A stretch of DNA of 50,219 nucleotides from Shigella phage phi2457T. A program made the position numbers and the translations under genes. The notes below the pieces were generated by a model. That model searched no databases, was not told the origin of the DNA, and saw only the letters and a list, made by a program, of their open reading frames with translations. Of this stretch, positions 3,107 to 35,423 are shown piece by piece. How positions within the stretch are numbered: the stretch's first letter is position 1; every line of letters starts with the position of its first letter. Location: sequence record MH917278; one strand, 5' to 3'.

Positions 3107-3595
3107 ATGAAAATTAAATTACTTTGCACTGGCGGTTACAAGGGCTTTACTCGCGACCTGGAATCTGACCCTATTATCGTTGACGCCGTGAAGTGCAATG
3201 ATAGCATTGGCGGCTACCGCGTCAAAGTCGATGACCTGGTTAAAGCTGGCGTGTACGATCTCAATTGCGGCCTATCGGTTAGTCCGGTATTTGGCCCGGC
3301 TGACTTCAACGAGAAGGACGGAACTATGTTCTTTTTCGATTGGGAAGTGCGGGCAAACATCAAGCCTCGCAAGGTTCGACTTCTCAACAATGGCGGTTAT
3401 CCTATGCTACCAGGTTATGAGAATCGCACATTCCCGGTTATTGTTGACTTTGAAGAAATAACCACACACTTAGCTTATATCAACGGTGAACAGCTTCATG
3501 CTGTTGGATTCGTGGGAGGTATGAATCAAGAGGCGCTGTGCTTCTTCCATCGCGAATCAGAGCCGTTCGATATTGAGTGTGAGCTAGTCTACTAA
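3107..3595 (+). CDS. hypothetical protein (162 aa)
   Basis: ATG with SD gagga 8 nt upstream; N-terminus MKIKLLCTGGYKGF resembles the paralogous family. Confidence 0.5.
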   Translation: MKIKLLCTGGYKGFTRDLESDPIIVDAVKCNDSIGGYRVKVDDLVKAGVYDLNCGLSVSPVFGPADFNEKDGTMFFFDWEVRANIKPRKVRLLNNGGYPMLPGYENRTFPVIVDFEEITTHLAYINGEQLHAVGFVGGMNQEALCFFHRESEPFDIECELVY

Positions 3596-3611
3596 GCACG
3601 AATTGTTAAAA
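3594..3611 (+). promoter_or_regulatory. conserved intergenic element copy
   Basis: aagcacgaattgttaaaa, hairpin ggggatt/aatcccc. Confidence 0.45.
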
Positions 3612-3660
3612 GGGGATTCGTCCTGACTGGTACAATCCCCACATCGACCACCAAGAGGAA

Positions 3661-4152
3661 ATGATTATGTTGAAATTAAACGAGATTAAATTCCCTGTAG
3701 TTTTTAACACCATTAGCTGCGGTAAAATAACCTGCCACAGCAAAGATCGTGCAACTGATTCGTCATTCAATGAGTGTCACCCGTCGATTGTTGGTAATCT
3801 CATTGAGCTTCATAACAATCACAATCCTGATAACATCCCATCTCTTCCATATTATGTTGAGAGTGCCGGGCCTGGTTGGAAAGTTGGTCGGGCCATCTTT
3901 CATGAATCAAAGCCAGAAATCAAGCCATCGCTACAGTGCACTCAGATCGAGAATATGCCACTTAGCGCAACGCTAAAAGGTGTCCAGATTAGCAGCGATT
4001 CTTGGGTTGAGATTACCGCGACACCAAAAACTATTGAGGTGCACGACGATATCATCACGCTTCTATTGCATCACGGCGGCTTCAAGAACAAGACGGTATC
4101 AGGTGAAATCAGCATTAAGCGCGGAACGCTTGTCCGCTATGAGGTGAAATAA
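3661..4152 (+). CDS. hypothetical protein (163 aa)
   Basis: ORF track; SD aagagga upstream. Confidence 0.5.
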   Translation: MIMLKLNEIKFPVVFNTISCGKITCHSKDRATDSSFNECHPSIVGNLIELHNNHNPDNIPSLPYYVESAGPGWKVGRAIFHESKPEIKPSLQCTQIENMPLSATLKGVQISSDSWVEITATPKTIEVHDDIITLLLHHGGFKNKTVSGEISIKRGTLVRYEVK

Positions 4153-20318: not shown

Positions 20319-20635
20319 AAAGGGCGGTCTATCTGTTATATCAGAAGCCGCCAACAGAGGAACAATTGCGATCGGTTGGTTTAAGTCTTTCAGACTATGA
20401 AGACGAGGAACCTGAAACGATAATTGGCGACGCTGAAATGGTGAAGGCTTGGAATGTTTTTACATCAATGCTCACTCAGTGGAGAAGTTCAGGCGCTGGC
20501 GCTTATGGTCTTGACTATAATGTTTTGCCTATGTTGTTTAAAATCTATAAAATAGAAGATGAAGAACTGGCATTGCAGGACGTTAGGATCATGGAAGCGA
20601 AAGCGCTTGAAATGATTGCTAAGCAGAATAACTAA
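20001..20635 (+). CDS. tail assembly chaperone G-T fusion via -1 programmed ribosomal frameshift (predicted)
   Basis: Heptamer A AAA AAC at 20309-20315 in frame 0; the -1 frame is open from 20309 through ORF 20366..20635 with no intervening stop. Confidence 0.6.
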
Positions 20636-20658
20636 GCCGCCGTCTGGCGGTTTTTTTG
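20636..20658 (+). terminator. rho-independent terminator
   Basis: Hairpin ccgcc/ggcgg followed by TTTTTTT. Confidence 0.55.
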
Positions 20659-20674
20659 TATATAAGGGGGTTAT

Positions 20675-23548
20675 ATGGTTGATAAGGTAGCAGGTCTATC
20701 GCTTGACGTTGATGTTTCGACAGTGCAGCGCGCCGTCAAGTCATTGAAAGAGTTTTCAAAAGCTAACGACCAAGCCGCTGACTCTATGGGGTCTTTAATC
20801 AATGAGGCCGAGGTTGCAAAACAGAAGGCTAAAGAGCACGCTGAGCAACTTAAGCGCCAGCGCAAAGAGTACGAGGCTGTAGAAAAGGCAATCGATCCTA
20901 CAGTATCAAAAATGGAAAGGCTGAAGATTGCATCTCAGCAGCTTGATAAACTCTGGCAAAAGGGCGTTGTTCCAGATGAAACATTTTTCCGTTTGGGTGA
21001 AATGCTGGACATGCAAAATGCAAAACTTGCTCGCAGCCGAGCCATGCTTACTGAAGAGGGGCAGGCAGCATTGCAGGAAGCGAAAGCAAAAGAGCAGGCA
21101 GCAGCGAAAAACAAAGCGTTCATGGATTCCCTGAACAGTCAGGTTAACGCTATTGGCAAAACTCACGCAGAGTTAATGGAACTGAAAGCGGCTCAGCTTG
21201 GACTATCAAATGAAGCAGCGCCACTGATCGCAAAACTGAAAGAGCAGGGTCGAGCCATGAATGCCGCAGGTATTAGCGCGGGGCAATATAGGCAGGCAAT
21301 GCGAATGCTTCCTGCACAGATTACCGACGTCGTTACATCTCTTGCGTCCGGTATGCCAGTTTGGATGGTTGCCATCCAGCAAGGTGGTCAAATCAAGGAC
21401 TCGTTCGGCGGGATCGGGAATACGTTTAAGGTATTGCTCAGCTATATTAATCCGGTCACAGTTGGTGTTGGTGTTCTTGTCGGCTCTTTAGGTCTTCTTG
21501 CGAAAGCTGGTTATGACTCTTACAAGTCAATAACTGATATGCAGAAGGCTCTTGTTGAGACTGGAGGTTATGCAGGAGTCACGGCTGAAGAACTTGATTC
21601 TGTTGCTAAAAAGGTGTCTCAGACGAGCAATTCAACAATTTCAAGCATTCGTGAGATTGTTACTGAACTTGCCAGTACGGGGAAGTATACGCGAGAGCAG
21701 ATTCAGAACATCACAAAGGCTACCGCTGAGTGGTCGACAGCAACCGGTAAATCAGCAAGTAAAATCATCGCTGAGTTCGATAAAATCGCAAGCGATCCTG
21801 TAAAGGGTCTGGCTAAACTTAACGAGCAATACAACTTTTTAGAAAAAGGGCAACTGACATATATCGATACGCTAAGCCGTACTAAGGGTGAAACAGAGGC
21901 AGTGTCTGAAGCCACGAAATTATTCGCCGATGTAATGGAAAAACGAATGAAGTCGATCGCTGATAATGCTACCCCTCTGGAAAAAATGTGGAACGATATT
22001 AAGCAGTGGGCCTCTGATGCGTGGGGGTGGGTTGGGGATCATACTCTCGGAGCATTAAACCTGATTATTGACGTAGTTCAGGGTACGGTAATTCAGGTAA
22101 AAATGATTCTGGCGAAGGGTGATGAGTACATCTCAAACTTTATAGCCTCTGCAATTAAGGCTACGCAGTCTCTGCCTGGAATGAGTGATTTCGGCGCTGA
22201 TGTACTAAAGGAACAGGAGAATATTGTAAAAAGTTCTCGTGACAACTACGATCAGTTAGCTTCAGAGCTTGATGCCATCAACGCCCGTGTTGAAAAAGGT
22301 GAGATGGGATACATTGAAGCAATGAAGCAGCGCCGTACTCTTGAAAAGCAGTATAGCCAGGAAACTAAGGACGCCATCAAGGAAGAAGCTAAAGAGATCG
22401 AAAAGCGAAACCGTGAACGAAATAAGCAGTCGAAAATTTTACGCTCACCTACAGAGCAATTCGATAAGGAGTTAATTTCACTCAAAGCGCAGCTTAAGGT
22501 TTTGCAGGAGCACAAGGAGATCGGGCAAAAAATATCAGCACAGAGAAAGGCGCTTTTTACGACTGAGGCTACAATTGCTGTTCTTCGAGAAGCTAGTTCT
22601 AAGCGTCAGCTATCTGCGGAAGAAAAAGCACTACTTGCAAACCAAGAGAAGGTTTTAGAGCTTGCGAAACAAAAGGCTGAGATTGGCGATCAGATTGTTA
22701 AGCAGCAGCAGTTGAACGCACTTACCGATAAATCACTGAAATTTGTCAATGATTTGACGGCAGCTACAGAGCAGCTAAACGCGTCTCGCGGGATGAGCAC
22801 TCGAGAAATGGAACGACAAGCGGAACTGGCTAAGATCACCACTGACTATATTAATGCAGGTGGCAGCGAAGGAGATGAAAAACTCCAGAACATGATCAAG
22901 GCACAAAATGATTACTATGCTGCGGAAGATGCCAAGCGCGCTGACTGGTTAGCTGGTGCTGAAAGCGCATTTGCAGATTACGGCGATTCTGCAATGGATA
23001 TGTACGGCAACGTGTATGATATCGCGTCAAGTTCACTTAACGGAATGAGTGATATGATGACCCAATTCCTTACTACAGGTAAGGCAAATTTTGAGGACTT
23101 TGCGAAAAATATCATTAGCATGATTATCAAGATGATTGCTCAGATGGTAATCTTCAATACGATCTCAGGCATGACGGGAGGTAAGACATGGAGTTTTGCA
23201 AGTGGATTGACCTCTAGCGCTTCTGCGGCATCACAGGCAACTCCTACGCCTGCCGTCTCTGGTTTTAGGTCTTTATCTTCAGGCGTTGCCGTTACCTCGC
23301 TTGCTGCCGCTGCGGGTAGTGTTGCAACCTCTGGATTTAACGCATCTAAATCCGCACCGAAGGCAGCGAACCAGTCAGCAGGCGGGACGGTCGTTGATGT
23401 TAGGGGTATGGAGGTTAAAGTTGACAACGGTTCAGATCCGAGAGGAATTTCTCAGGGCGTAGAAATGATGTTCAAAAAAATGATTCGAGAGTCTTGTTCG
23501 CAGGGCGGTGAGGTTTACAATTACATTCAGGAAAAAACAGGAGGCTAA
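20675..23548 (+). CDS. tail tape measure protein
   Basis: 957 aa, Ala/Lys/Glu/Gln-rich coiled-coil sequence with hydrophobic segments near 21400 and 23100; position after G/G-T. Confidence 0.9.
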
Positions 23549-26170: not shown

Positions 26171-29100
26171 ATGATTCAAAAAGTGATAAGTGGATCTAAA
26201 GGTGGATCACAAAAGCCGCATAAGCCAGTTGAGATGGAAGATAATCTAATCTCAATCAACAAAATCAAGATTCTTCTGGCAGTATCTGATGGCGAGGTTG
26301 ACGAAACATTCAACCTTAAGCAACTGATGTTTAACTCAGTCCCGGTGCAAAACGAGGATGGCTCTTTTAACTTTGAGGGCGTAACAGCAGAGTTCAGGCC
26401 GGGTACGCAGACTCAGGAATACATTAAGGGCATGGAGGATAGCTCCAGCGAGGTAACTGTAAACCGTGAGATTACTACCGATAATCCATACACGATCTCA
26501 GTAACCAACAAGACGCTGTCGGCAATCCGTATTAAAATGTTCATGCCTCGCGGCGTACGCATTGAAAGCAACGGCGATAAAAACGGCGTTCGCGTTGAGT
26601 ACGAAGTGCAGCAAGCGGTTGATAGTGGTTCGTTTGAGACTATTCTTACTGACGTAATCGAAGGCAAAACAATGTCAGGTTACGATCGAAGCCGTCGTGT
26701 AAACCTGCCAAACTTCAATAACCAGGTTATATTCAGGATTGTTCGAAAGACTCCAGATTCTGATAATTCAAACGTTGTTGATGCGATTCAGGTAAAGAGC
26801 TATGCCGAGGTGATTGATGCCAAATTCCGTTACCCTCTGACAGGTCTTCTTTTCGTAGAGTTCGACTCGAAGATGTTCCCAAACCAGTTACCTACGATCT
26901 CAATTCGTAAGCGATGGAAGATTATAAACGTTCCGTCAAACTACGATCCGGAATCACGAACTTATAACGGAAATTGGGATGGCACTTTTAAGAAGGCGTG
27001 GACTAATAATCCGGCTTGGGTTCTTTATGACTTGATGATTAATCAGCGTTACGGACTGGATCAGAAAGAGCTTGGAATATCTGTCGATAAATGGGCGCTA
27101 TATGAGGCGGCGCAATATTGCGACCAGATGGTTCCTGACGGGAAAGGCGGTACGGAGCCTCGCTACCTTTGCGACGTGATAATTCAGTCACAGACTGATG
27201 CGTACAAGGTGATTCGAGACATTTGCTCAATCTTCCGTGGTATGAGCTTCTGGAATGGCGAAAGCATCTCGGTAATCATCGACAGACCGCGTGAGCCTGC
27301 TTACATCTTCACTAACGACAACGTTGTTAATGGTGACTTCTCCTATACGTTCGCAAGCGAAAAGAGTATGTACACGACGTGTAACGTGATGTTTGACGAC
27401 GAGCAAAACATGTATCAACAGGACGTTGAGCCAGTATTCGATCGTGAGGCGACTCTGCGGTTCGGTAATAACGTAACCAGCATTACAGCGATCGGTTGCA
27501 CACGTCGAAGCGAGGCCAACCGACGTGGGAGATGGATTCTGAAAACCAACCTCCGCAGCACTACGGTAAACTTCGCTACCGGTCTTGAGGGTATGATCCC
27601 GACAATCGGAGATGTTGTGGCAATAGCTGATAACTTCTGGTCAAGTAACTTGACGATGAACCTATCAGGGCGCTTGCTCGAAGTGTCTGGAAGTCAGATT
27701 TTCTTGCCGTTCCGGGTGGATGCACGCGCGGGTGACTTTATTATCGTAAATAAGCCAGATGGCAAGCCCGTGAAGCGCACAATCTCAAGTGTTAGTGCGG
27801 ATGGTAAGACTATAGAGGTTAACATTGGCTTTGGCTTTCCTGTGAAGCCTAACACGGTATTCGCTATCGACCGCACAGACATTGCGTTACAGCAGTACGT
27901 CGTGACAAAAATCGATAAGGGTGATGACGATGAGGAATTTACCTACAAGATTACTGCGGTTGAGTACGATCCTAACAAGTACGATGAGATTGATTACGGT
28001 GTTAACATAGACGACAGACCGACGAGTATCGTTGAACCAGACCAGATCCCTAGACCGGAAAACGTGCAAGTGTCATCTGAGTCACGAATCGTCCAGGGGA
28101 TGAGCGTAGAGACGATGATTGTAAGCTGGGATAAAGTGCCGTACGCAGTTTTCTATGATGTTCAGTGGAGAAAGGATAACGGCAACTGGCAAAATGTACC
28201 ACAGACAGCAAACAAAGAGGTATACGTTGAAGGTATTTACGCTGGCAACTATCAGGTTCGCGTTCGCTCCGTAGCTGGTTCCGGTACGACTTCAGGATGG
28301 TCAAATATCGTAGCTGCGACGCTGACGGGCAAACAAGGTGAGCCGGGTCGACCGATTAACCTTACAGCTACGGATGATGTTGTTTTTGGTATCCGTACAA
28401 AATGGGGGTTCTCTGATGGTTCTGGAGATACGGCCTATACAGAGTTGCAACAGTCACCGGATGGAACGGTTGACAATGCGAGTTTACTCTCTCTGATCCC
28501 GTATCCGCAGCATGAGTATTATCATTCACCGATGCCGGGCGGGAATATTGTGTGGTATCGGGTAAGGACGGTTGATAGGATCGGTAACGTGTCTCAGTGG
28601 ACTGATTTTGTCAGAGGTATGGCATCAACAAACGTTGACGATATCATTGGGGAGATTTCTGTCGATATCGAAAACTCGCCTGGTTACGAGTGGCTTGTTG
28701 ATAACGCAACCGACAACGCGGCGCAGAACGCAGCTAACGCAGAGGCAGCAATAGAAAACGCGCTCGCCAATGACAAAGACGCGATCTATATGAAGAAGGA
28801 GAACGGAAAACGAAAGGCTGAGTACACGAAATCACTGAAACTTATTGCTGATGAGACGCAGGCACGAGTGACGGCGATCGAGCAATTGAAAGCAAGTTTT
28901 GGCGATCAGATTAGCGCAAGCAATAGTGAATTGCGTGAAGTTATCGCAACTGAGACAGGGGCGCTATCTCGTGAGATTGACCAACTCAAGGCAGAGATTG
29001 GTGATGATATTCAGGCAAGTTTGACCGATATCCGTGAAGCCATCGCGAACGAGACTGAGGCGAGAACGCAAGCTGACTTAACGTTAAGCGCGCAACTTGG

Positions 29101-29620
29101 GAATAACGAGGCAGCACTTTCTCAAAAACTTGACTCGTGGAGTAACGCCGATTCGACTGGTGCAATGTACGGCGTCAAGCTGGGCCTTAAGTATAATGGT
29201 CAGGAATACAGCGCAGGTATGGCTATGTCTCTGATTGGTTCTGGTGCGGCTGTTAAGGCTCAGATTCTTTTTGAGGCATCTCGATTTGCAATCATGACTG
29301 GCATGAACGGTCAGACTCAGTACCCATTCGTTGTTGAGAATGGCCAGGTTATTCTAAGTAGCGCGATCATCAAGGATGGCTTTATTACTAATGCCATGAT
29401 TGGAAACTGGATTCAATCTAACAATTGGGATGGGAATAATGGATGGGCCATAAACAAGAATGGCGACGCTTCATTCATGAATGCAACAGTGAGGGGTAGA
29501 ATTTACGCAAATAACGGAGAGTTTGCATTTAACGGAACAAATAACACGGTTCAGATAAACAATAACGGTATCACGGTCAACTTACCTAACGGGGGTCGAG
29601 TGGTTGTTGGTGTCTGGTAA
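26171..29620 (+). CDS. central tail fibre / host specificity protein (lambda gpJ-like)
   Basis: 1149 aa; position after I; FN3-like region and C-terminal coiled-coil with repeated units (ELREVIATETGA / TDIREAIANETEA). Confidence 0.85.
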   Translation: MIQKVISGSKGGSQKPHKPVEMEDNLISINKIKILLAVSDGEVDETFNLKQLMFNSVPVQNEDGSFNFEGVTAEFRPGTQTQEYIKGMEDSSSEVTVNREITTDNPYTISVTNKTLSAIRIKMFMPRGVRIESNGDKNGVRVEYEVQQAVDSGSFETILTDVIEGKTMSGYDRSRRVNLPNFNNQVIFRIVRKTPDSDNSNVVDAIQVKSYAEVIDAKFRYPLTGLLFVEFDSKMFPNQLPTISIRKRWKIINVPSNYDPESRTYNGNWDGTFKKAWTNNPAWVLYDLMINQRYGLDQKELGISVDKWALYEAAQYCDQMVPDGKGGTEPRYLCDVIIQSQTDAYKVIRDICSIFRGMSFWNGESISVIIDRPREPAYIFTNDNVVNGDFSYTFASEKSMYTTCNVMFDDEQNMYQQDVEPVFDREATLRFGNNVTSITAIGCTRRSEANRRGRWILKTNLRSTTVNFATGLEGMIPTIGDVVAIADNFWSSNLTMNLSGRLLEVSGSQIFLPFRVDARAGDFIIVNKPDGKPVKRTISSVSADGKTIEVNIGFGFPVKPNTVFAIDRTDIALQQYVVTKIDKGDDDEEFTYKITAVEYDPNKYDEIDYGVNIDDRPTSIVEPDQIPRPENVQVSSESRIVQGMSVETMIVSWDKVPYAVFYDVQWRKDNGNWQNVPQTANKEVYVEGIYAGNYQVRVRSVAGSGTTSGWSNIVAATLTGKQGEPGRPINLTATDDVVFGIRTKWGFSDGSGDTAYTELQQSPDGTVDNASLLSLIPYPQHEYYHSPMPGGNIVWYRVRTVDRIGNVSQWTDFVRGMASTNVDDIIGEISVDIENSPGYEWLVDNATDNAAQNAANAEAAIENALANDKDAIYMKKENGKRKAEYTKSLKLIADETQARVTAIEQLKASFGDQISASNSELREVIATETGALSREIDQLKAEIGDDIQASLTDIREAIANETEARTQADLTLSAQLGNNEAALSQKLDSWSNADSTGAMYGVKLGLKYNGQEYSAGMAMSLIGSGAAVKAQILFEASRFAIMTGMNGQTQYPFVVENGQVILSSAIIKDGFITNAMIGNWIQSNNWDGNNGWAINKNGDASFMNATVRGRIYANNGEFAFNGTNNTVQINNNGITVNLPNGGRVVVGVW

Positions 29621-29624
29621 CAGA

Positions 29625-29650
29625 AAGGGGCCGATTGGCCCCTTTTTTTA
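29625..29650. terminator. bidirectional terminator between convergent genes
   Basis: Hairpin ggggccgattggcccc flanked by A-run and T7. Confidence 0.65.
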
Positions 29651-30613
29651 ATACATGTTCGGAGTGAAAGGAATTGGCATTGAAATGTTTATATTGAAGG
29701 GGAATTGCGCTCCGCTTTGGGTGGAATAATTACCTACTCTTGTTCCTGGGGCGCTTCTCACGTTACCTCCGCTCATACACACGCCCTTGTATCGAATGTT
29801 ATTATATCCACCTGTAACTCTGCATATCGTACCTGTTCTTAGTATTGGGAAAAATCCACCACACCACTGCCACCCGTCATTTATCGCCATAGTCCCGCCG
29901 AGAACGAAGGGGCGTCTAACGCTTGAGAAGACGATCTGACCAGCAGGATTACTCATGGTTATTCCTGGCCCTGGGGGTGGTGGAGTGTTATTAAATATTA
30001 CGAGTTGCACGTATACGCTAGCGCCAACGTCATCAATCCCGTTATAGTTTGCATCCCTGCACCATATTGTATTGCCGTCAGATTCAAGTGTTACGTTTGG
30101 ATTATCCCACATACCGAAAGGAACGCCCTGCACTGGCAACTGAGCCTGACCGTTAACCTGAATCCCCCCAACAAATGCAGCGCTCATCAATCTGGCGTTA
30201 TTCGGTATAGCTGCGAAGTTCGTTGAATCGTTAACAAGTATCCCCTGATTTCCAGCCTGAGCGGGGAGGATTTCGTAGCAGTTTCCATAAAATCTCATCC
30301 TCCTTCCACCGTGCCCGTTAAAATTACCTACCGTTATTCGTCCGGTTGAATCATTTACCTTCTGAAAACTAGTCAAATAATACACCTCCGGGATGTAATC
30401 CATATCGTCTATGTAGATAGCCTGAGATGGAAGGCAAAAAGCGGTAGATCCTGGACTCATTTGCAGACCAAAATCAAAAACCGATCCAGATGAATCAACC
30501 CCGTCAGCCTGTATAGGTCCACACCATGACGGGGCGCGAAGCCCTGAAGTTATCTCCATTGCCGGGCGACCGTCGTTTAGGTTTATATATATTCCTTGCC
30601 CCATAATTACCAC
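29648..30613 (-). CDS. putative receptor-binding protein (T5 pb5-like role, inferred)
   Basis: 321 aa Gly/Asn-rich beta-type protein co-transcribed downstream of a lipoprotein gene, convergent with J; inference from arrangement. Confidence 0.4.
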   Translation of the reverse strand: MVIMGQGIYINLNDGRPAMEITSGLRAPSWCGPIQADGVDSSGSVFDFGLQMSPGSTAFCLPSQAIYIDDMDYIPEVYYLTSFQKVNDSTGRITVGNFNGHGGRRMRFYGNCYEILPAQAGNQGILVNDSTNFAAIPNNARLMSAAFVGGIQVNGQAQLPVQGVPFGMWDNPNVTLESDGNTIWCRDANYNGIDDVGASVYVQLVIFNNTPPPPGPGITMSNPAGQIVFSSVRRPFVLGGTMAINDGWQWCGGFFPILRTGTICRVTGGYNNIRYKGVCMSGGNVRSAPGTRVGNYSTQSGAQFPFNINISMPIPFTPNMY

Positions 30614-30837
30614 TCTTTAGTTTTGATTGACACCTTGCCGCTAAAGTTGCCCTGATCGTCGTCGGATGACAGACCTTTGAATCGCATATCAATTTCGCCA
30701 GCAGGAACCTTTTGACCATCAACGAATCGCATCATGCAAGAACCGTATGCGTAAGTAACGCAGTCGCCATTTTTAAGATTCTGAGCACAACCAGTCAGGA
30801 TGAATGCCGCAGCGATAATGGTGATTAACTTTTTCAT
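30607..30837 (-). CDS. superinfection-exclusion lipoprotein (Cor/Llp-like)
   Basis: 76 aa; signal peptide MKKLITIIAAAFILTGC with lipobox LTGC; adjacent to putative receptor-binding gene. Confidence 0.6.
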   Translation of the reverse strand: MKKLITIIAAAFILTGCAQNLKNGDCVTYAYGSCMMRFVDGQKVPAGEIDMRFKGLSSDDDQGNFSGKVSIKTKEW

Positions 30838-30915
30838 TTGTATGTCCTCGTCGTTAGTGTGATTTCATTGTATGTCGCATTTACTTTTATTGCAATAGCG
30901 CGATTACAATTTTTT

Positions 30916-31259
30916 CGTGTAACAGGTGTCTATTTTTGTAACCGAAACGGGTGTTACAAAATCAACCCCATCCGACCGCAGGTGGATATGATAAAAACTC
31001 TATATAATATATATAGATAGATAATATTTAATTTTAGCTTTATATATATAATTATTGTTGTGTAACAGTTGTATATCGTGTAACAGGTGATTTGATTGAT
31101 TCGTCAAATTTCTATCATATTTGTTCAAAATATAATCAATCTTGATTCTATTCATGGATATCTTTGTATTTCTAAGAAAAAGCGGTTACAAGTATTACGC
31201 AATAGACACAACATAAAAACAGGATTAAGTAATTGATTCCGTTGGCGCTGGTTGTAACT
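30916..31259. repeat. iteron-like cluster of TGTAAC/GTTACA repeats (candidate origin or regulatory hub)
   Basis: cgtgtaacaggtg at 30916 and 31077; tgtaacag 31061; ttgtaacc 30937; gtgttacaa 30951; ggttacaag 31184; gttgtaact 31251; includes AT-rich tract 30996-31057. Confidence 0.5.
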
Positions 31260-31363
31260 TGAGCGATATAGACACGCAATTACACACCAATTACATGTAT
31301 TCGATTGACTAAACGCTGTTAATGGCTATAATGGATTCATCGTAAACGAGGGAGATAAACGAA

Positions 31364-32428
31364 ATGTTCCAGGTATTCACATCAAGTCAGCTTTCTAATG
31401 ACGAGTATCATAGCAACGAAGGTTGGGCGGCAGAGTATGTAAGCGGTTCTAGCCTTGCAGAAATTTATCAGACTTGCCCGGCTAACTGGCGATTCAAGAA
31501 GAACGAGACTACTAAAGCGCTGGATTTCGGCACTCAGTCGCACACTAACTTTGAGAGTCGAGATCTGTTTACTGCAACGTATGCGCGTTGTCCTGCTCCG
31601 TCAGAGTTTAAAGATCTTATTACTTCGCAAACGGCACTGGCAGCAAAATTAAAATCTTTTGGCCTGAAAGGCACATCCGGTAAGCAGTACCCTGACCTCA
31701 TCAAAATGATGGTTGATTGCGGTGAAGATCTCAATGTTCAATATCTTATTGAACTGATTGCTGAAGCTGAGGCGCGCGCTGAAGGAAAGCAACTGGTTGA
31801 CGCTGATAAATATGATGCCTGTATGAAGATGAGGGCCATTCTTGAGCAAAACCCAGATCATGAAGCGTGCATCAATAGCGAAACTGCGCAGCGTGAGATC
31901 TCAATTTTCGGTGAGATATCCGGCGTCAAGGTTAAGGTTCGACTTGACCATTTGGACTACAAAGAGAATGTTCCAGGTCGTGTGCTGACTGGTTATGATG
32001 AGAATGGCGATCCGGTATTTGAAGACGTGATTTTTCCTGAAGCTCTGATTATCACTGACTTCAAAACCACGATGAGCGCCAACCCGTTAGAGTTCCCGAG
32101 ACTGGCATACAATCACGGGTATTATCTTAAAATGGCCTTACAGCATGACCTATTGCGGCGTGCAATTCAGGCTGGAGCATTTGAAGGAAACTTCCCGGAA
32201 GATATTCCGATCGTAGTTCGATTGCTGGCACAGGAGAAAAAGGAACCTTACATTGCCCTTGCTTACCGCATGACTATGGAGCAAATCAGAATAGGTCGCA
32301 ATCAGTATATTAGCGTGGTCCACACTTATAAGGCTTGCTCTGAGATGGACGTTTGGCCAGGATATGCTGGCGACGCAAGCGAGATCGAACTTGAAACGCC
32401 GTCATGGGTACGATATCAAAACAAGTAA
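31364..32428 (+). CDS. putative recombination exonuclease (PD-(D/E)XK-like)
   Basis: 354 aa directly upstream of ERF and SSB genes; motif IITDFKTT consistent with D-x-K nuclease signature; assignment tentative. Confidence 0.45.
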   Translation: MFQVFTSSQLSNDEYHSNEGWAAEYVSGSSLAEIYQTCPANWRFKKNETTKALDFGTQSHTNFESRDLFTATYARCPAPSEFKDLITSQTALAAKLKSFGLKGTSGKQYPDLIKMMVDCGEDLNVQYLIELIAEAEARAEGKQLVDADKYDACMKMRAILEQNPDHEACINSETAQREISIFGEISGVKVKVRLDHLDYKENVPGRVLTGYDENGDPVFEDVIFPEALIITDFKTTMSANPLEFPRLAYNHGYYLKMALQHDLLRRAIQAGAFEGNFPEDIPIVVRLLAQEKKEPYIALAYRMTMEQIRIGRNQYISVVHTYKACSEMDVWPGYAGDASEIELETPSWVRYQNK

Positions 32429-33612: not shown

Positions 33613-33640
33613 AAAATCCCCGCAATGCGGGGATTTTATC
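33613..33640. terminator. bidirectional terminator
   Basis: Hairpin atccccgcaatgcggggat flanked by A-run and T-run, between convergent genes. Confidence 0.65.
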
Positions 33641-35423
33641 ATTTGGACTTCAACATTTTTATCTCTTCTTGTAACTCTTCAACTTTCTTTATTGTATCCT
33701 GTAAAGCTCTCATAGTGTCAAGCAATAAAGGAGTTGTATCAAGCTCAAGCCTTTCAACTTTTGGCCCGTTTAGCTCGTGGCTCTCATACATCCTTCTCTT
33801 AACATATAGATTGTCGATCTCTTCTATCTCCTGAGCTATGACACCTCGCCTTACCCTTTCTTGCTCATCATCGTTAAAGATAAAGTTCCTAAATCTCATT
33901 GATTTTATGTTGTTGTATGCAATGCTTGATTCATCATCCTTTATGCTGTGCTTTATATTTCTGTCAGATGCCGGAATCTGTTGGAAACTTCCAGCCCCTT
34001 GCGGTCCAGCGTAAGATATTTGCCCTGAAGCCATAAACCTGAAATGCATTTGCAAACCAATATTGCCTGCCCCATCCCTATCTTGAGCACCTACTGATAT
34101 TTGTGCCCTGGGCCATTCAGGATTGCCCGTAGTCATCATGCCAAAAGCTACGCCGCCAACATACCCTTGACCCCTTGTATCACACGATCCAGCAATAAGT
34201 GATTGATAGTTTTCAGCGCCACTATCGGCAGTGTAAGCATTACCCTGGAAGCATGAAGCAGACCACATCTGGTTGTAACCCATAGATGTTTTCTGGCATA
34301 AAAACTGATTAGCTCTAAATCTATTGTTAGTCTCGAAGTAGTTTGCCCCTTCATAAAATAATAAAGCCCCAGCATAACCATTATCGCTATGTTCTTTTCT
34401 GACGTAAATCCCTGGTGTGGATATTCCATCAGGTGACATAATCATCAATGATGACAATATGGACTGACTACCCCAATTAGAACCGTTCCATGAGTTCCTT
34501 CCTGCCCCTATAGCTCCCGTGGTGTTAACAGTAAGAAAGTTAACAGCATCATTTTCACCTAACCCAATATTTTTTCTTGACTCTTTTTTATCATCAAGAC
34601 CAGCTAGATTGCCATCCTTAGTTAAAAGATTTTCAGCATTGATGCTGTTAGCTGCGTCTTTTGCTTCTTGAGCACTTACCGCAGCAGCATCTTTTGAGCT
34701 TACCGCTTCGTCACGCGCTGCCTGAGCGTCGTTTTTTGCAGAGGTAGCCGTTTGTGCTGCCGTTTGAGCGTCATTAACGTAACCTGACAGATCGCCTTTC
34801 GCGTCATTAATTGCCTGAATCGCCGCCGCTTCTTCTGAGTCAATGTGAGTGATGGATGAATTTTCTTTTTGCTGCACATCGGTTATAGCCTGATCCTTAG
34901 CCGCATTGATGCTACCGACAGCACCGTCAACAATCTGTTGCGTCTGATTCTTGATTGAGTTAGTTTCATCGCGTGCAGCGTTGGCTGCGTCACGCGCTAA
35001 TTCAGCCTGATTTTGCGCAGCTTGAGAATCAGATTTCGCCTGATTCACATCAGCAACTATTTGCTCAAGTTTATTCATATCAAGCTGATTTATCAGGTCT
35101 ATAGCTTCCGCAATCTCAGTCTCTTTGCTTTGATAGTATCGCAGAGTCTCGGCGACGTTTTGAGCTAATCCGTTAACGGTTAGAGAGTCATTAAGTAGGA
35201 TCACATACTTACCGTCATCGGCAGTCTGACCATCAGTAGAGATAGCCTTTAATTCTGTATCACTAACGATATCGCTAATCACAGCCAGCTTAATTGGTTG
35301 CTCAAGGAACACGATAGTTGCACCTACGCGAATAAGAGCAAGCTGATCTTTCCATTTTGTATCGGTTCCGTGAACCGTTCCGTCTGCATCCATTGATGCA
35401 GTACCGCGTCTGTATAAAGCCAT
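33639..35423 (-). CDS. side tail fibre with C-terminal S74-type intramolecular chaperone domain
   Basis: 594 aa; Ala/Gln/Asp-rich coiled-coil repeats; C-terminal region SDRNIKHSIKDDESSIAYNNIKSMRFRNFIFND...RRGVIAQEIEEID matches the auto-cleaving chaperone-of-endosialidase domain. Confidence 0.75.
   Translation of the reverse strand: MALYRRGTASMDADGTVHGTDTKWKDQLALIRVGATIVFLEQPIKLAVISDIVSDTELKAISTDGQTADDGKYVILLNDSLTVNGLAQNVAETLRYYQSKETEIAEAIDLINQLDMNKLEQIVADVNQAKSDSQAAQNQAELARDAANAARDETNSIKNQTQQIVDGAVGSINAAKDQAITDVQQKENSSITHIDSEEAAAIQAINDAKGDLSGYVNDAQTAAQTATSAKNDAQAARDEAVSSKDAAAVSAQEAKDAANSINAENLLTKDGNLAGLDDKKESRKNIGLGENDAVNFLTVNTTGAIGAGRNSWNGSNWGSQSILSSLMIMSPDGISTPGIYVRKEHSDNGYAGALLFYEGANYFETNNRFRANQFLCQKTSMGYNQMWSASCFQGNAYTADSGAENYQSLIAGSCDTRGQGYVGGVAFGMMTTGNPEWPRAQISVGAQDRDGAGNIGLQMHFRFMASGQISYAGPQGAGSFQQIPASDRNIKHSIKDDESSIAYNNIKSMRFRNFIFNDDEQERVRRGVIAQEIEEIDNLYVKRRMYESHELNGPKVERLELDTTPLLLDTMRALQDTIKKVEELQEEIKMLKSK

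Follow-up and report, generated by a model that had tools for sequence, protein, structure and literature searches.

The two minus-strand genes that follow the central tail fiber gene J of Shigella phage phi2457T very probably form an LptD-type receptor-binding locus of the kind carried by small T1-like siphophages, that is, a receptor-binding protein (RBP) of 318 amino acids predicted to bind LptDE, the essential LPS translocon of the outer membrane, and a superinfection-exclusion lipoprotein of 76 amino acids. The window analyzed here, the whole stretch of 50,219 nucleotides of record MH917278, is a complete T1-like genome of a Sfin-1-like Tunavirus. Judged from homology, the combined role of the pair in receptor binding and exclusion is close to certain, and LptD as the receptor of the particular sub-allele found in phi2457T is somewhat less certain. 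The LptD target is indicated by two independent components, namely an RBP 68% identical to that of phage MSK and a lipoprotein 70% identical to that of Oekolampad, and the main limits on this reading are the identity of ~43% between the RBP and its structurally solved homolog and the absence of the protein from two published virion protein lists. The module as such is already known from genetics (2021), from structures (2025), and from large-scale screens (2026).

Gene layout and transcription signals

Over positions 29400-31100 the phi2457T sequence shares 99.3% DNA identity with Shigella phage Sfin-1 (Drexlerviridae, Tunavirus) and 90-97% with SH6, pSf-2, Shfl1, DELF2, and ISF001/002, pSf-2 reaching 95.8% across the whole region; the hosts from which these relatives were isolated are mostly Shigella. 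Its RBP is 98.7-100% identical to those of Sfin-1, DELF2, SH6, and Shfl1 (100% in Sfin-1, four residues different in SH6), and its lipoprotein is 95-100% identical among the same phages. The cassettes of Sfin-1, DELF2, SH6, Shfl1, and pSf-2 show no substantive difference from that of phi2457T. The Sfin-1-type records annotate both genes merely as hypothetical, membrane protein, or lipoprotein, and SH6 is listed among predicted LptD phages by Black et al. (PMC13035648). An Rfam scan of the whole window found nothing, and NCBIfam contains no family for either the RBP or the lipoprotein. The features of the locus and its immediate context are as follows.

30607-30837, minus strand: gene of the putative superinfection-exclusion lipoprotein, a 76-aa ORF
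29648-30604, minus strand: gene of the predicted receptor-binding protein, 318 aa from ATG 30604, stop codon at 29650-29648
29627-29642, both strands: bidirectional intrinsic terminator hairpin common to J (plus) and the RBP operon (minus), from sequence reading and folding
29425-29620, plus strand: codons of the J C-terminal tip (approximately residues 1086-1149), which goes with the RBP type
30867-30895, minus strand: sigma-70-like promoter (TTGCAA-17-TACAAT) of the lipoprotein-RBP operon
26171-29424, plus strand: body of the lambda-J-like central tail fiber gene, constant context with 92% DNA identity to T1 J

The two minus-strand ORFs after J, first pointed out in an earlier note on this DNA, are real genes, purifying selection placing both far beyond chance. 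The RBP gene differs from that of DELF2 at 48 nucleotides, all of them synonymous, with no amino acid change, and its dN/dS against DELF2, SH6, and Shfl1 is 0-0.013, which indicates extreme purifying selection on the RBP; the corresponding dN/dS values of the lipoprotein are 0.014-0.048. The length of 321 aa previously given for the larger product derives from the start chosen by the ORF lister, GTG 30613, and is corrected here to 318 aa. The GTG start is ruled out, and ATG 30604 is taken instead, because the homologs begin with MGxGI and a gene of 957 nt is annotated in four other records (Sfin-1, DELF2, Shfl1, and SH6).

The lipoprotein stop codon (30609-30607) lies 2 nt upstream of the RBP ATG at 30604, a spacing that supports the proposed co-transcription of the two genes. 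An AAAGAG motif is found upstream of the RBP start and a GAGGA ribosome-binding site (30849-30845) upstream of the lipoprotein start. The promoter-like sequence at 30895-30867 on the minus strand matches the consensus at 9 of 12 positions, a score at which such sites are regionally no commoner than chance; it is supported by its location 30 nt upstream of the lipoprotein start and by its identity in T1, and it is part of a constant region common to Cor-carrying tunaviruses. The J homolog (1149 aa, 26171-29620, plus strand) runs toward the operon, confirming the convergent arrangement, and the 27-nt gap between J and the RBP gene holds the bidirectional terminator that had been proposed, a GGGGCC/GGCCCC hairpin. 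Its predicted folding energy is −17.9 kcal/mol on the minus strand (z = −4.1) and −19.5 kcal/mol on the plus strand (z = −4.5), with T-runs following at 29643-29649 on the plus strand and 29626-29619 on the minus strand. A terminator pattern scan of 29300-31500 flagged none; this result was set aside, as reading and folding give a strong hairpin with T-runs on both sides. Oekolampad, Rtp, MSK, and XJA18 share this order of lipoprotein, RBP, and convergent J, and Sfin-1 has the same layout.

Homologs of the two proteins

The locus downstream of gpJ has been described as a receptor-specificity module and likened to that of T5 (Maffei 2021, PMC8594841; 2026 preprint). Four unrelated protein families at this position track FhuA, BtuB, LptD, or YncD, with >30% identity within a family (2026 preprint), and no exception to the family-receptor rule is reported in at least 12 LptD phages (PMC8594841; 2026 preprint). 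Structures of the LptD-type locus are deposited as PDB 9rpt, 9rpw, 9rqi, and 9rps (Dunbar 2025). In the cryo-EM structure 9rpt, the RBP of Oekolampad (Bas18) is inserted in the extracellular mouth of LptDE in its open state, the LptDE used being that of Shigella flexneri (PMC12685063). Phage Rtp brings about superinfection exclusion through its lipoprotein Rtp45, as related in Dunbar 2025; Rtp45 sits on the periplasmic face of LptDE in the structure 9rps, blocks RBP binding, and displaces the LptD loop EL4 by up to 20 Å, and a Cys30-Cys38 disulfide is described in it (PMC12685063).

The 318-aa protein matches Pfam PF20051/DUF6453 over its full length with an E-value of 1.2e-126 and 422 bits (cut-off 25), its residues 4-295 covering profile positions 1-291 of 291. 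Against PDB chain 9rpt_C, the Oekolampad RBP on LptDE, it aligns from residues 1-318 to 1-321 with an E-value of 9.5e-67, and this end-to-end match to a solved structure settles the family and lets us infer a fold like that of 9rpt chain C. Gln299, the interface residue of the Oekolampad RBP named in the text of that study, aligns with a Gln in the phi2457T protein. AlphaFold2 run on the single sequence gave no usable model (mean pLDDT 33.6). In composition the protein is Gly/Asn-rich, as had been noticed (Gly 13.2%, Asn 8.8%). Its identity is ~43% to the RBP of Oekolampad, 41% to Rtp44, 40% to that of FritzHoffmann, and 67.8% to that of MSK, in each case at 100% coverage. Membership of the LptD-type family is defined in the 2026 preprint by >30% identity and near-complete coverage to members with experimental LptD dependence, and the phi2457T RBP falls inside this definition, Oekolampad and FritzHoffmann both being experimentally LptD-dependent. 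OzMSK, which is near-identical to MSK, fails on two lptD loop-deletion mutants (PMC13035648). JNUWD was considered as a closer LptD-verified relative and rejected: it has a genome of 43 kb, its paper compares it with SU57-type siphophages, and it is not a tunavirus.

The smaller protein is a lipoprotein with the lipobox LTGC, as previously read: the 76-aa ORF starts with MKKLITIIAAAFILTGC, and the lipid-attachment Cys is residue 17. The predicted signal peptide, MKKLITIIAAAFILTG, ends directly before this Cys, which is followed by Ala-Gln, giving Ala and no Asp at position +2. Outer-membrane lipoproteins are sorted by a +2 rule in the Lol system of E. coli. Signal peptide and lipobox take up codons 1-17 (30787-30837), leaving a mature protein of 60 aa. 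The protein matches Pfam PF24052 (8.6e-25, 87 bits, cut-off 27), a profile that gives 128 bits for Rtp45 and 76 bits for the Oekolampad lipoprotein, as well as phrog_4281 (3e-37) and PDB chain 9rps_D, Rtp45 on LptDE (E = 1.1e-9). Its identity to the Oekolampad lipoprotein is 70%, against 41% to Rtp45. Its Cys26 and Cys34 align with the disulfide-forming C30 and C38 of Rtp45, and this cysteine pair is kept by all five PF24052 members aligned, whereas T1 Cor is without it. The likeness to Cor suggested in the earlier note is confined to the signal peptide: the phrog_1119 profile (5.5e-6) covers residues 1-33 only. We therefore rejected membership of the Cor family (T1, phi80, N15), since the mature parts cannot be aligned and the global identity of 36% is due to the signal peptide; conversely, T1 Cor reaches 17.7 bits on PF24052, below the cut-off of 27.

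Taken as a pair, the phi2457T proteins share with Rtp44/Rtp45 and the Oekolampad pair the same Pfam families (DUF6453 and PF24052), the same order and orientation after gpJ, and the shared terminator, with the RBP aligned over its full length, the disulfide cysteines of the lipoprotein conserved, and a similar J tip. The differences lie in the subtypes and in the genomic background. The phi2457T RBP is a distinct sub-allele, 41-43% identical to those of Rtp44 and Oekolampad and closest (68%) to the Rogunavirinae/MSK type. Its lipoprotein belongs with that of Oekolampad (70%) rather than with Rtp45 (41%) and has the signal peptide of T1 Cor. The backbone is that of a Tunavirus, unlike that of Rtp or Oekolampad.

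Predicted mechanism and competing explanations

The homologies suggest how the pair would act during infection. The 318-aa protein would be made late and dock on the central fiber at the C-terminal tip of J. The lateral fibers (594-aa ORF, 33639-35423) would first bind O-antigen reversibly, a step that fits the periodate-sensitive adsorption reported for Sfin-1; in that phage adsorption is insensitive to proteinase K, and LPS is named as the receptor (Sfin-1 paper). These data are compatible with a primary O-antigen step and give no positive support for a protein receptor. The RBP would then insert into the extracellular mouth of the LptD/LptE translocon, leading to commitment to DNA injection. 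The 76-aa protein would be exported, lipidated at Cys17, and sorted, with its Ala at +2, to the inner leaflet of the outer membrane, where it would bind the periplasmic side of LptDE and push loop EL4 outward. Infected cells and debris would then be closed to the RBPs of phi2457T and of other LptD-targeting phages. The proposal that a receptor-blocking lipoprotein stands beside a dedicated host-range RBP is supported by homology, the respective activities having been shown for homologs of both proteins.

The layout had been compared with the llp/pb5 pair of T5. This analogy, which has also been made in the literature, stands as functional logic: in T5 a dedicated monomeric RBP, pb5 (oad), sits at the end of the central fiber, and Llp, a small outer-membrane lipoprotein facing the periplasm, makes the receptor unavailable. 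The analogy does not extend to sequence homology. A phmmer search of all PDB chains at E ≤ 10 matched no pb5 chain, although the pb5 entry 8A8C is in the PDB, and no Llp chain with either protein, and returned just 9rpt, 9rps, and chance matches for the two; Llp membership of the lipoprotein was accordingly rejected. The nearest fold to a model of the OzMSK RBP is a lectin (PMC13035648), and pb5 and LptD-type RBPs are described as structurally distinct (2026 preprint). The T5 receptor FhuA is a TonB-dependent transporter, whereas that of the LptD type is the 26-strand LPS translocon; exclusion at FhuA by Llp works by allostery, whereas the LptD homolog acts by steric displacement of loop EL4. 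The genomic location of the T5 pair also differs from that in phi2457T.

As the receptor, the earlier note had assumed a TonB-dependent transporter (FhuA, BtuB, or others); homology predicts LptD/LptE instead. That the pair combines an RBP and an exclusion lipoprotein but is aimed at FhuA, BtuB, or a similar transporter is now extremely improbable. It would agree with the Tunavirus backbone, whose type species T1 uses FhuA, with a lipoprotein signal peptide identical to that of T1 Cor, and with the weak phrog_1119 match; however, this match stops at residue 33 and leaves out the unalignable mature parts, the FhuA cassette of T1 (ST32/ST31) is without similarity to the 318-aa protein, the alleles for FhuA, BtuB, and YncD belong to protein families that are unrelated (2026 preprint), and neither pb5 nor Llp was found among the PDB chains. 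Just as hard to maintain is the view that the 318-aa protein stays out of the virion as a membrane protein or moron and is no component of the tail tip. This is what its database labels say: RefSeq names it "membrane protein," and phrog_1265 carries the same name in the category moron. The protein is also missing from the published virion LC-MS/MS lists of Sfin-1 (22 proteins) and SH6 (11 proteins). Nevertheless, we reject the label, as the protein has no transmembrane or hydrophobic segment (maximum Kyte-Doolittle value of 0.99 over 19 residues) and no signal peptide. A homolog binds purified LptDE from outside (PMC12685063), its position after gpJ is invariant, and the J tip co-varies with the RBP. 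Absence from both proteomes is not decisive either, because a protein of 1-3 copies per virion is easily missed, and both lists are also without other minor tail proteins.

A different concern applies to specificity within the family. T5-like pb5 homologs at ~30% identity switch between FhuA and BtuB (2026 preprint), so that specificity cannot be read from family membership alone. The allele present in Tunavirus could have drifted to a different or additional receptor, or to another LptDE state or binding mode, a scenario we regard as unlikely. It finds some ground in the ~43% identity to the solved RBP, in the three groupings of LptD-contacting loops described by Black et al. (PMC13035648), in the mostly Shigella origin of the relatives, and in Bas01, which requires NupG besides LptD by way of a GpJ domain (2026 preprint). 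Against it, both components point to LptD, the RBP through MSK and the lipoprotein through Oekolampad; XJA18 pairs a lipoprotein of the phi2457T type with an RBP of the Oekolampad type, implying the same target; the family-receptor rule is without reported exception; and the solved structure was obtained with LptDE from Shigella flexneri (PMC12685063). The preferred reading remains that of a pair directed at LptDE.

Cassette boundaries and exchange

Comparison with T1 delimits the exchanged segment. In T1, the corresponding position between J and the exonuclease VIII gene is occupied by the FhuA-type cassette ST32/ST31 (plus strand) and Cor (minus strand), and the promoter, the ribosome-binding site, and the 17-residue signal peptide of the lipoprotein are those of phi2457T. 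In contrast, the T1 RBP candidates ST32/ST31 are unrelated proteins encoded on the plus strand, mature Cor is unrelated, and the J tip differs; no similarity of ST32/ST31 to the 318-aa protein was detected, and Pfam finds nothing in them. The J proteins of the two phages are 95% identical, and DNA homology to T1 ends at 29424 (around J codon 1085) and resumes at 30788. From there, 112 of 114 bases are identical over the signal peptide (as far as the lipobox Cys codon), the ribosome-binding site, and the promoter. Beyond the Cys codon the match falls to random level, which places the junction exactly at this codon. The exchanged block, as judged from the alignment, is approximately 29425-30787: it takes in the final ~64 codons of J, then the terminator and the RBP gene, and ends with the sequence for the mature lipoprotein.

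Across its final ~55 residues, J matches that of the LptD-type phages MSK and Rtp, not that of T1, and the last 40 are identical to MSK. LptD-specific C-terminal features of GpJ, and a tip that co-varies with the RBP, are reported (2026 preprint); the J tip is presumed to be the docking adaptor for the RBP. The segment with promoter and signal peptide is present in 63 phage records, Cor being carried by about half, and the segment coding for the LptD-type mature lipoprotein has a megablast-level match in 31 records only. Two phages combine the subtypes differently: XJA18 has a lipoprotein of the phi2457T type (92%) with an RBP of the Oekolampad type (42% to the phi2457T RBP), and MSK has an RBP of the phi2457T type (68%) with a lipoprotein of the Rtp45 type. 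RBP and lipoprotein subtypes thus appear to reassort independently within the LptD class, as expected if both bind LptDE on opposite faces and not each other.

These boundaries invite a tentative reading of the locus, which we hold at somewhat less than even confidence, as a standardized socket with an exchangeable plug. The socket, constant across tunaviruses, may consist of the J body, the promoter, the ribosome-binding site, and the 17-residue signal peptide, and the plug, exchanged by recombination, may consist of the J tip, the terminator, the RBP gene, and the mature lipoprotein. A related possibility, put forward with the same reserve, concerns LptDE beyond siphophages. PF24052 lipoproteins are also present in podophages of the Gordonclarkvirinae whose records showed no DUF6453 RBP homolog, and LptDE may therefore be an unrecognized hub of entry or exclusion outside the siphophages.

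The biology of the module having been published between 2021 and 2026, the value of the present analysis lies in the annotation and in the precise cassette junctions. The near-identical genes called "hypothetical" or "membrane protein" in Sfin-1, DELF2, SH6, Shfl1, and others can now be named as those of a predicted LptD-type RBP and exclusion lipoprotein. The assignment predicts that candidate therapeutic Shigella and E. coli phages of the Sfin-1 kind depend on an essential receptor, and that resistance would arise through mutations in the LptD loops EL4 and EL11. The cassette boundaries, together with the extreme conservation of the RBP, could aid host-range engineering, and the socket reading, if true, would supply a precise rule for retargeting T1-like phages.

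Junctions with phage T1 and conservation of the receptor-binding protein

The predicted exclusion lipoprotein of the window (PF24052) is LptD-type, whereas Cor of T1, the Tunavirus type species, is a FhuA blocker, yet the signal peptide and promoter are common to both. At 30788-30837 lies the segment for the 17-residue signal peptide; both this peptide and the promoter upstream of it are essentially the same as in T1 cor, and it is precisely at the codon for the lipobox cysteine that homology between the two genes stops. This signal-peptide identity, broken at the lipobox cysteine, accounts for the "45% identity to Cor" reported earlier for ORF50 of the relative SH6.

In the convergent J gene, which encodes the lambda-J-like central tail fibre, alignment with T1 J around 28934-29061 gives two overlapping segments offset by ~99 nt, and T1 J has 1172 aa against 1149 aa in the window, a surplus of 23 residues. 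The offset and the extra length together suggest an indel in a part of J that is repetitive and coiled-coil-like and lies just upstream of the exchanged tip.

The gene of the receptor-binding protein (RBP), the DUF6453 protein predicted to bind LptDE, was compared with that of the Tunavirus DELF2 over 29651-30604. All 48 nucleotide differences are synonymous (dS 0.26, dN 0), a level of conservation that is unusual for a host-recognition protein.

Upstream motif and lateral tail fibre

The whole window holds three copies of the 12-mer GTGTAACAG[G/T]TG, against a chance expectation of 0.41:

30917-31089, all on one strand: three copies, in the intergenic region that separates the lipoprotein operon from the divergently oriented exonuclease VIII gene

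The motif is kept at the equivalent position in T1, in the close relatives Sfin-1, Shfl1 and DELF2, and in XJA18, a phage with an LptD-type cassette. As a candidate operator, it may be the target of a phage regulator.

A probable further host-recognition component is encoded on the minus strand:

33639-35423, minus strand: lateral tail fibre, 594 aa, N-terminal half coiled-coil

This fibre is probably the primary adhesin, binding O-antigen; such a role would account for the reported periodate-sensitive adsorption of Sfin-1.

Related modules in other phages

While the RBP and lipoprotein genes adjoin in the window, their homologues in Klebsiella Webervirus genomes (among them mtp2, OX335370.1) lie ~10 kb apart:

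20464-21417: RBP homologue, about 30% identity
10772-10951: lipoprotein homologue, 39% identity

The matches listed also place the enterobacterial module, at 38-68% identity, in Campylobacter-labelled phages A118, A131 and A134, Pseudomonas phage PsgS01F and Vibrio phage Vc1. Either the host labels of these records are doubtful or the module is more widespread.

Clear PF24052 (Rtp45-type) lipoproteins are also carried by Gordonclarkvirinae podophages, with further matches in Bas89, Bas90, Bas93, Paul and NJ01:

3441-3722 in the SU10 sequence examined: gp104, PF24052, E 2.6e-36

Among the 60 of 336 matches listed for the DUF6453 RBP there is no record of ~70-80 kb, and the BASEL-2 paper makes no LptD link for these podophages. 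Their lipoprotein genes sit within blocks of small early-type ORFs. The podophages may use LptDE themselves, or may exclude siphophages that target LptD.
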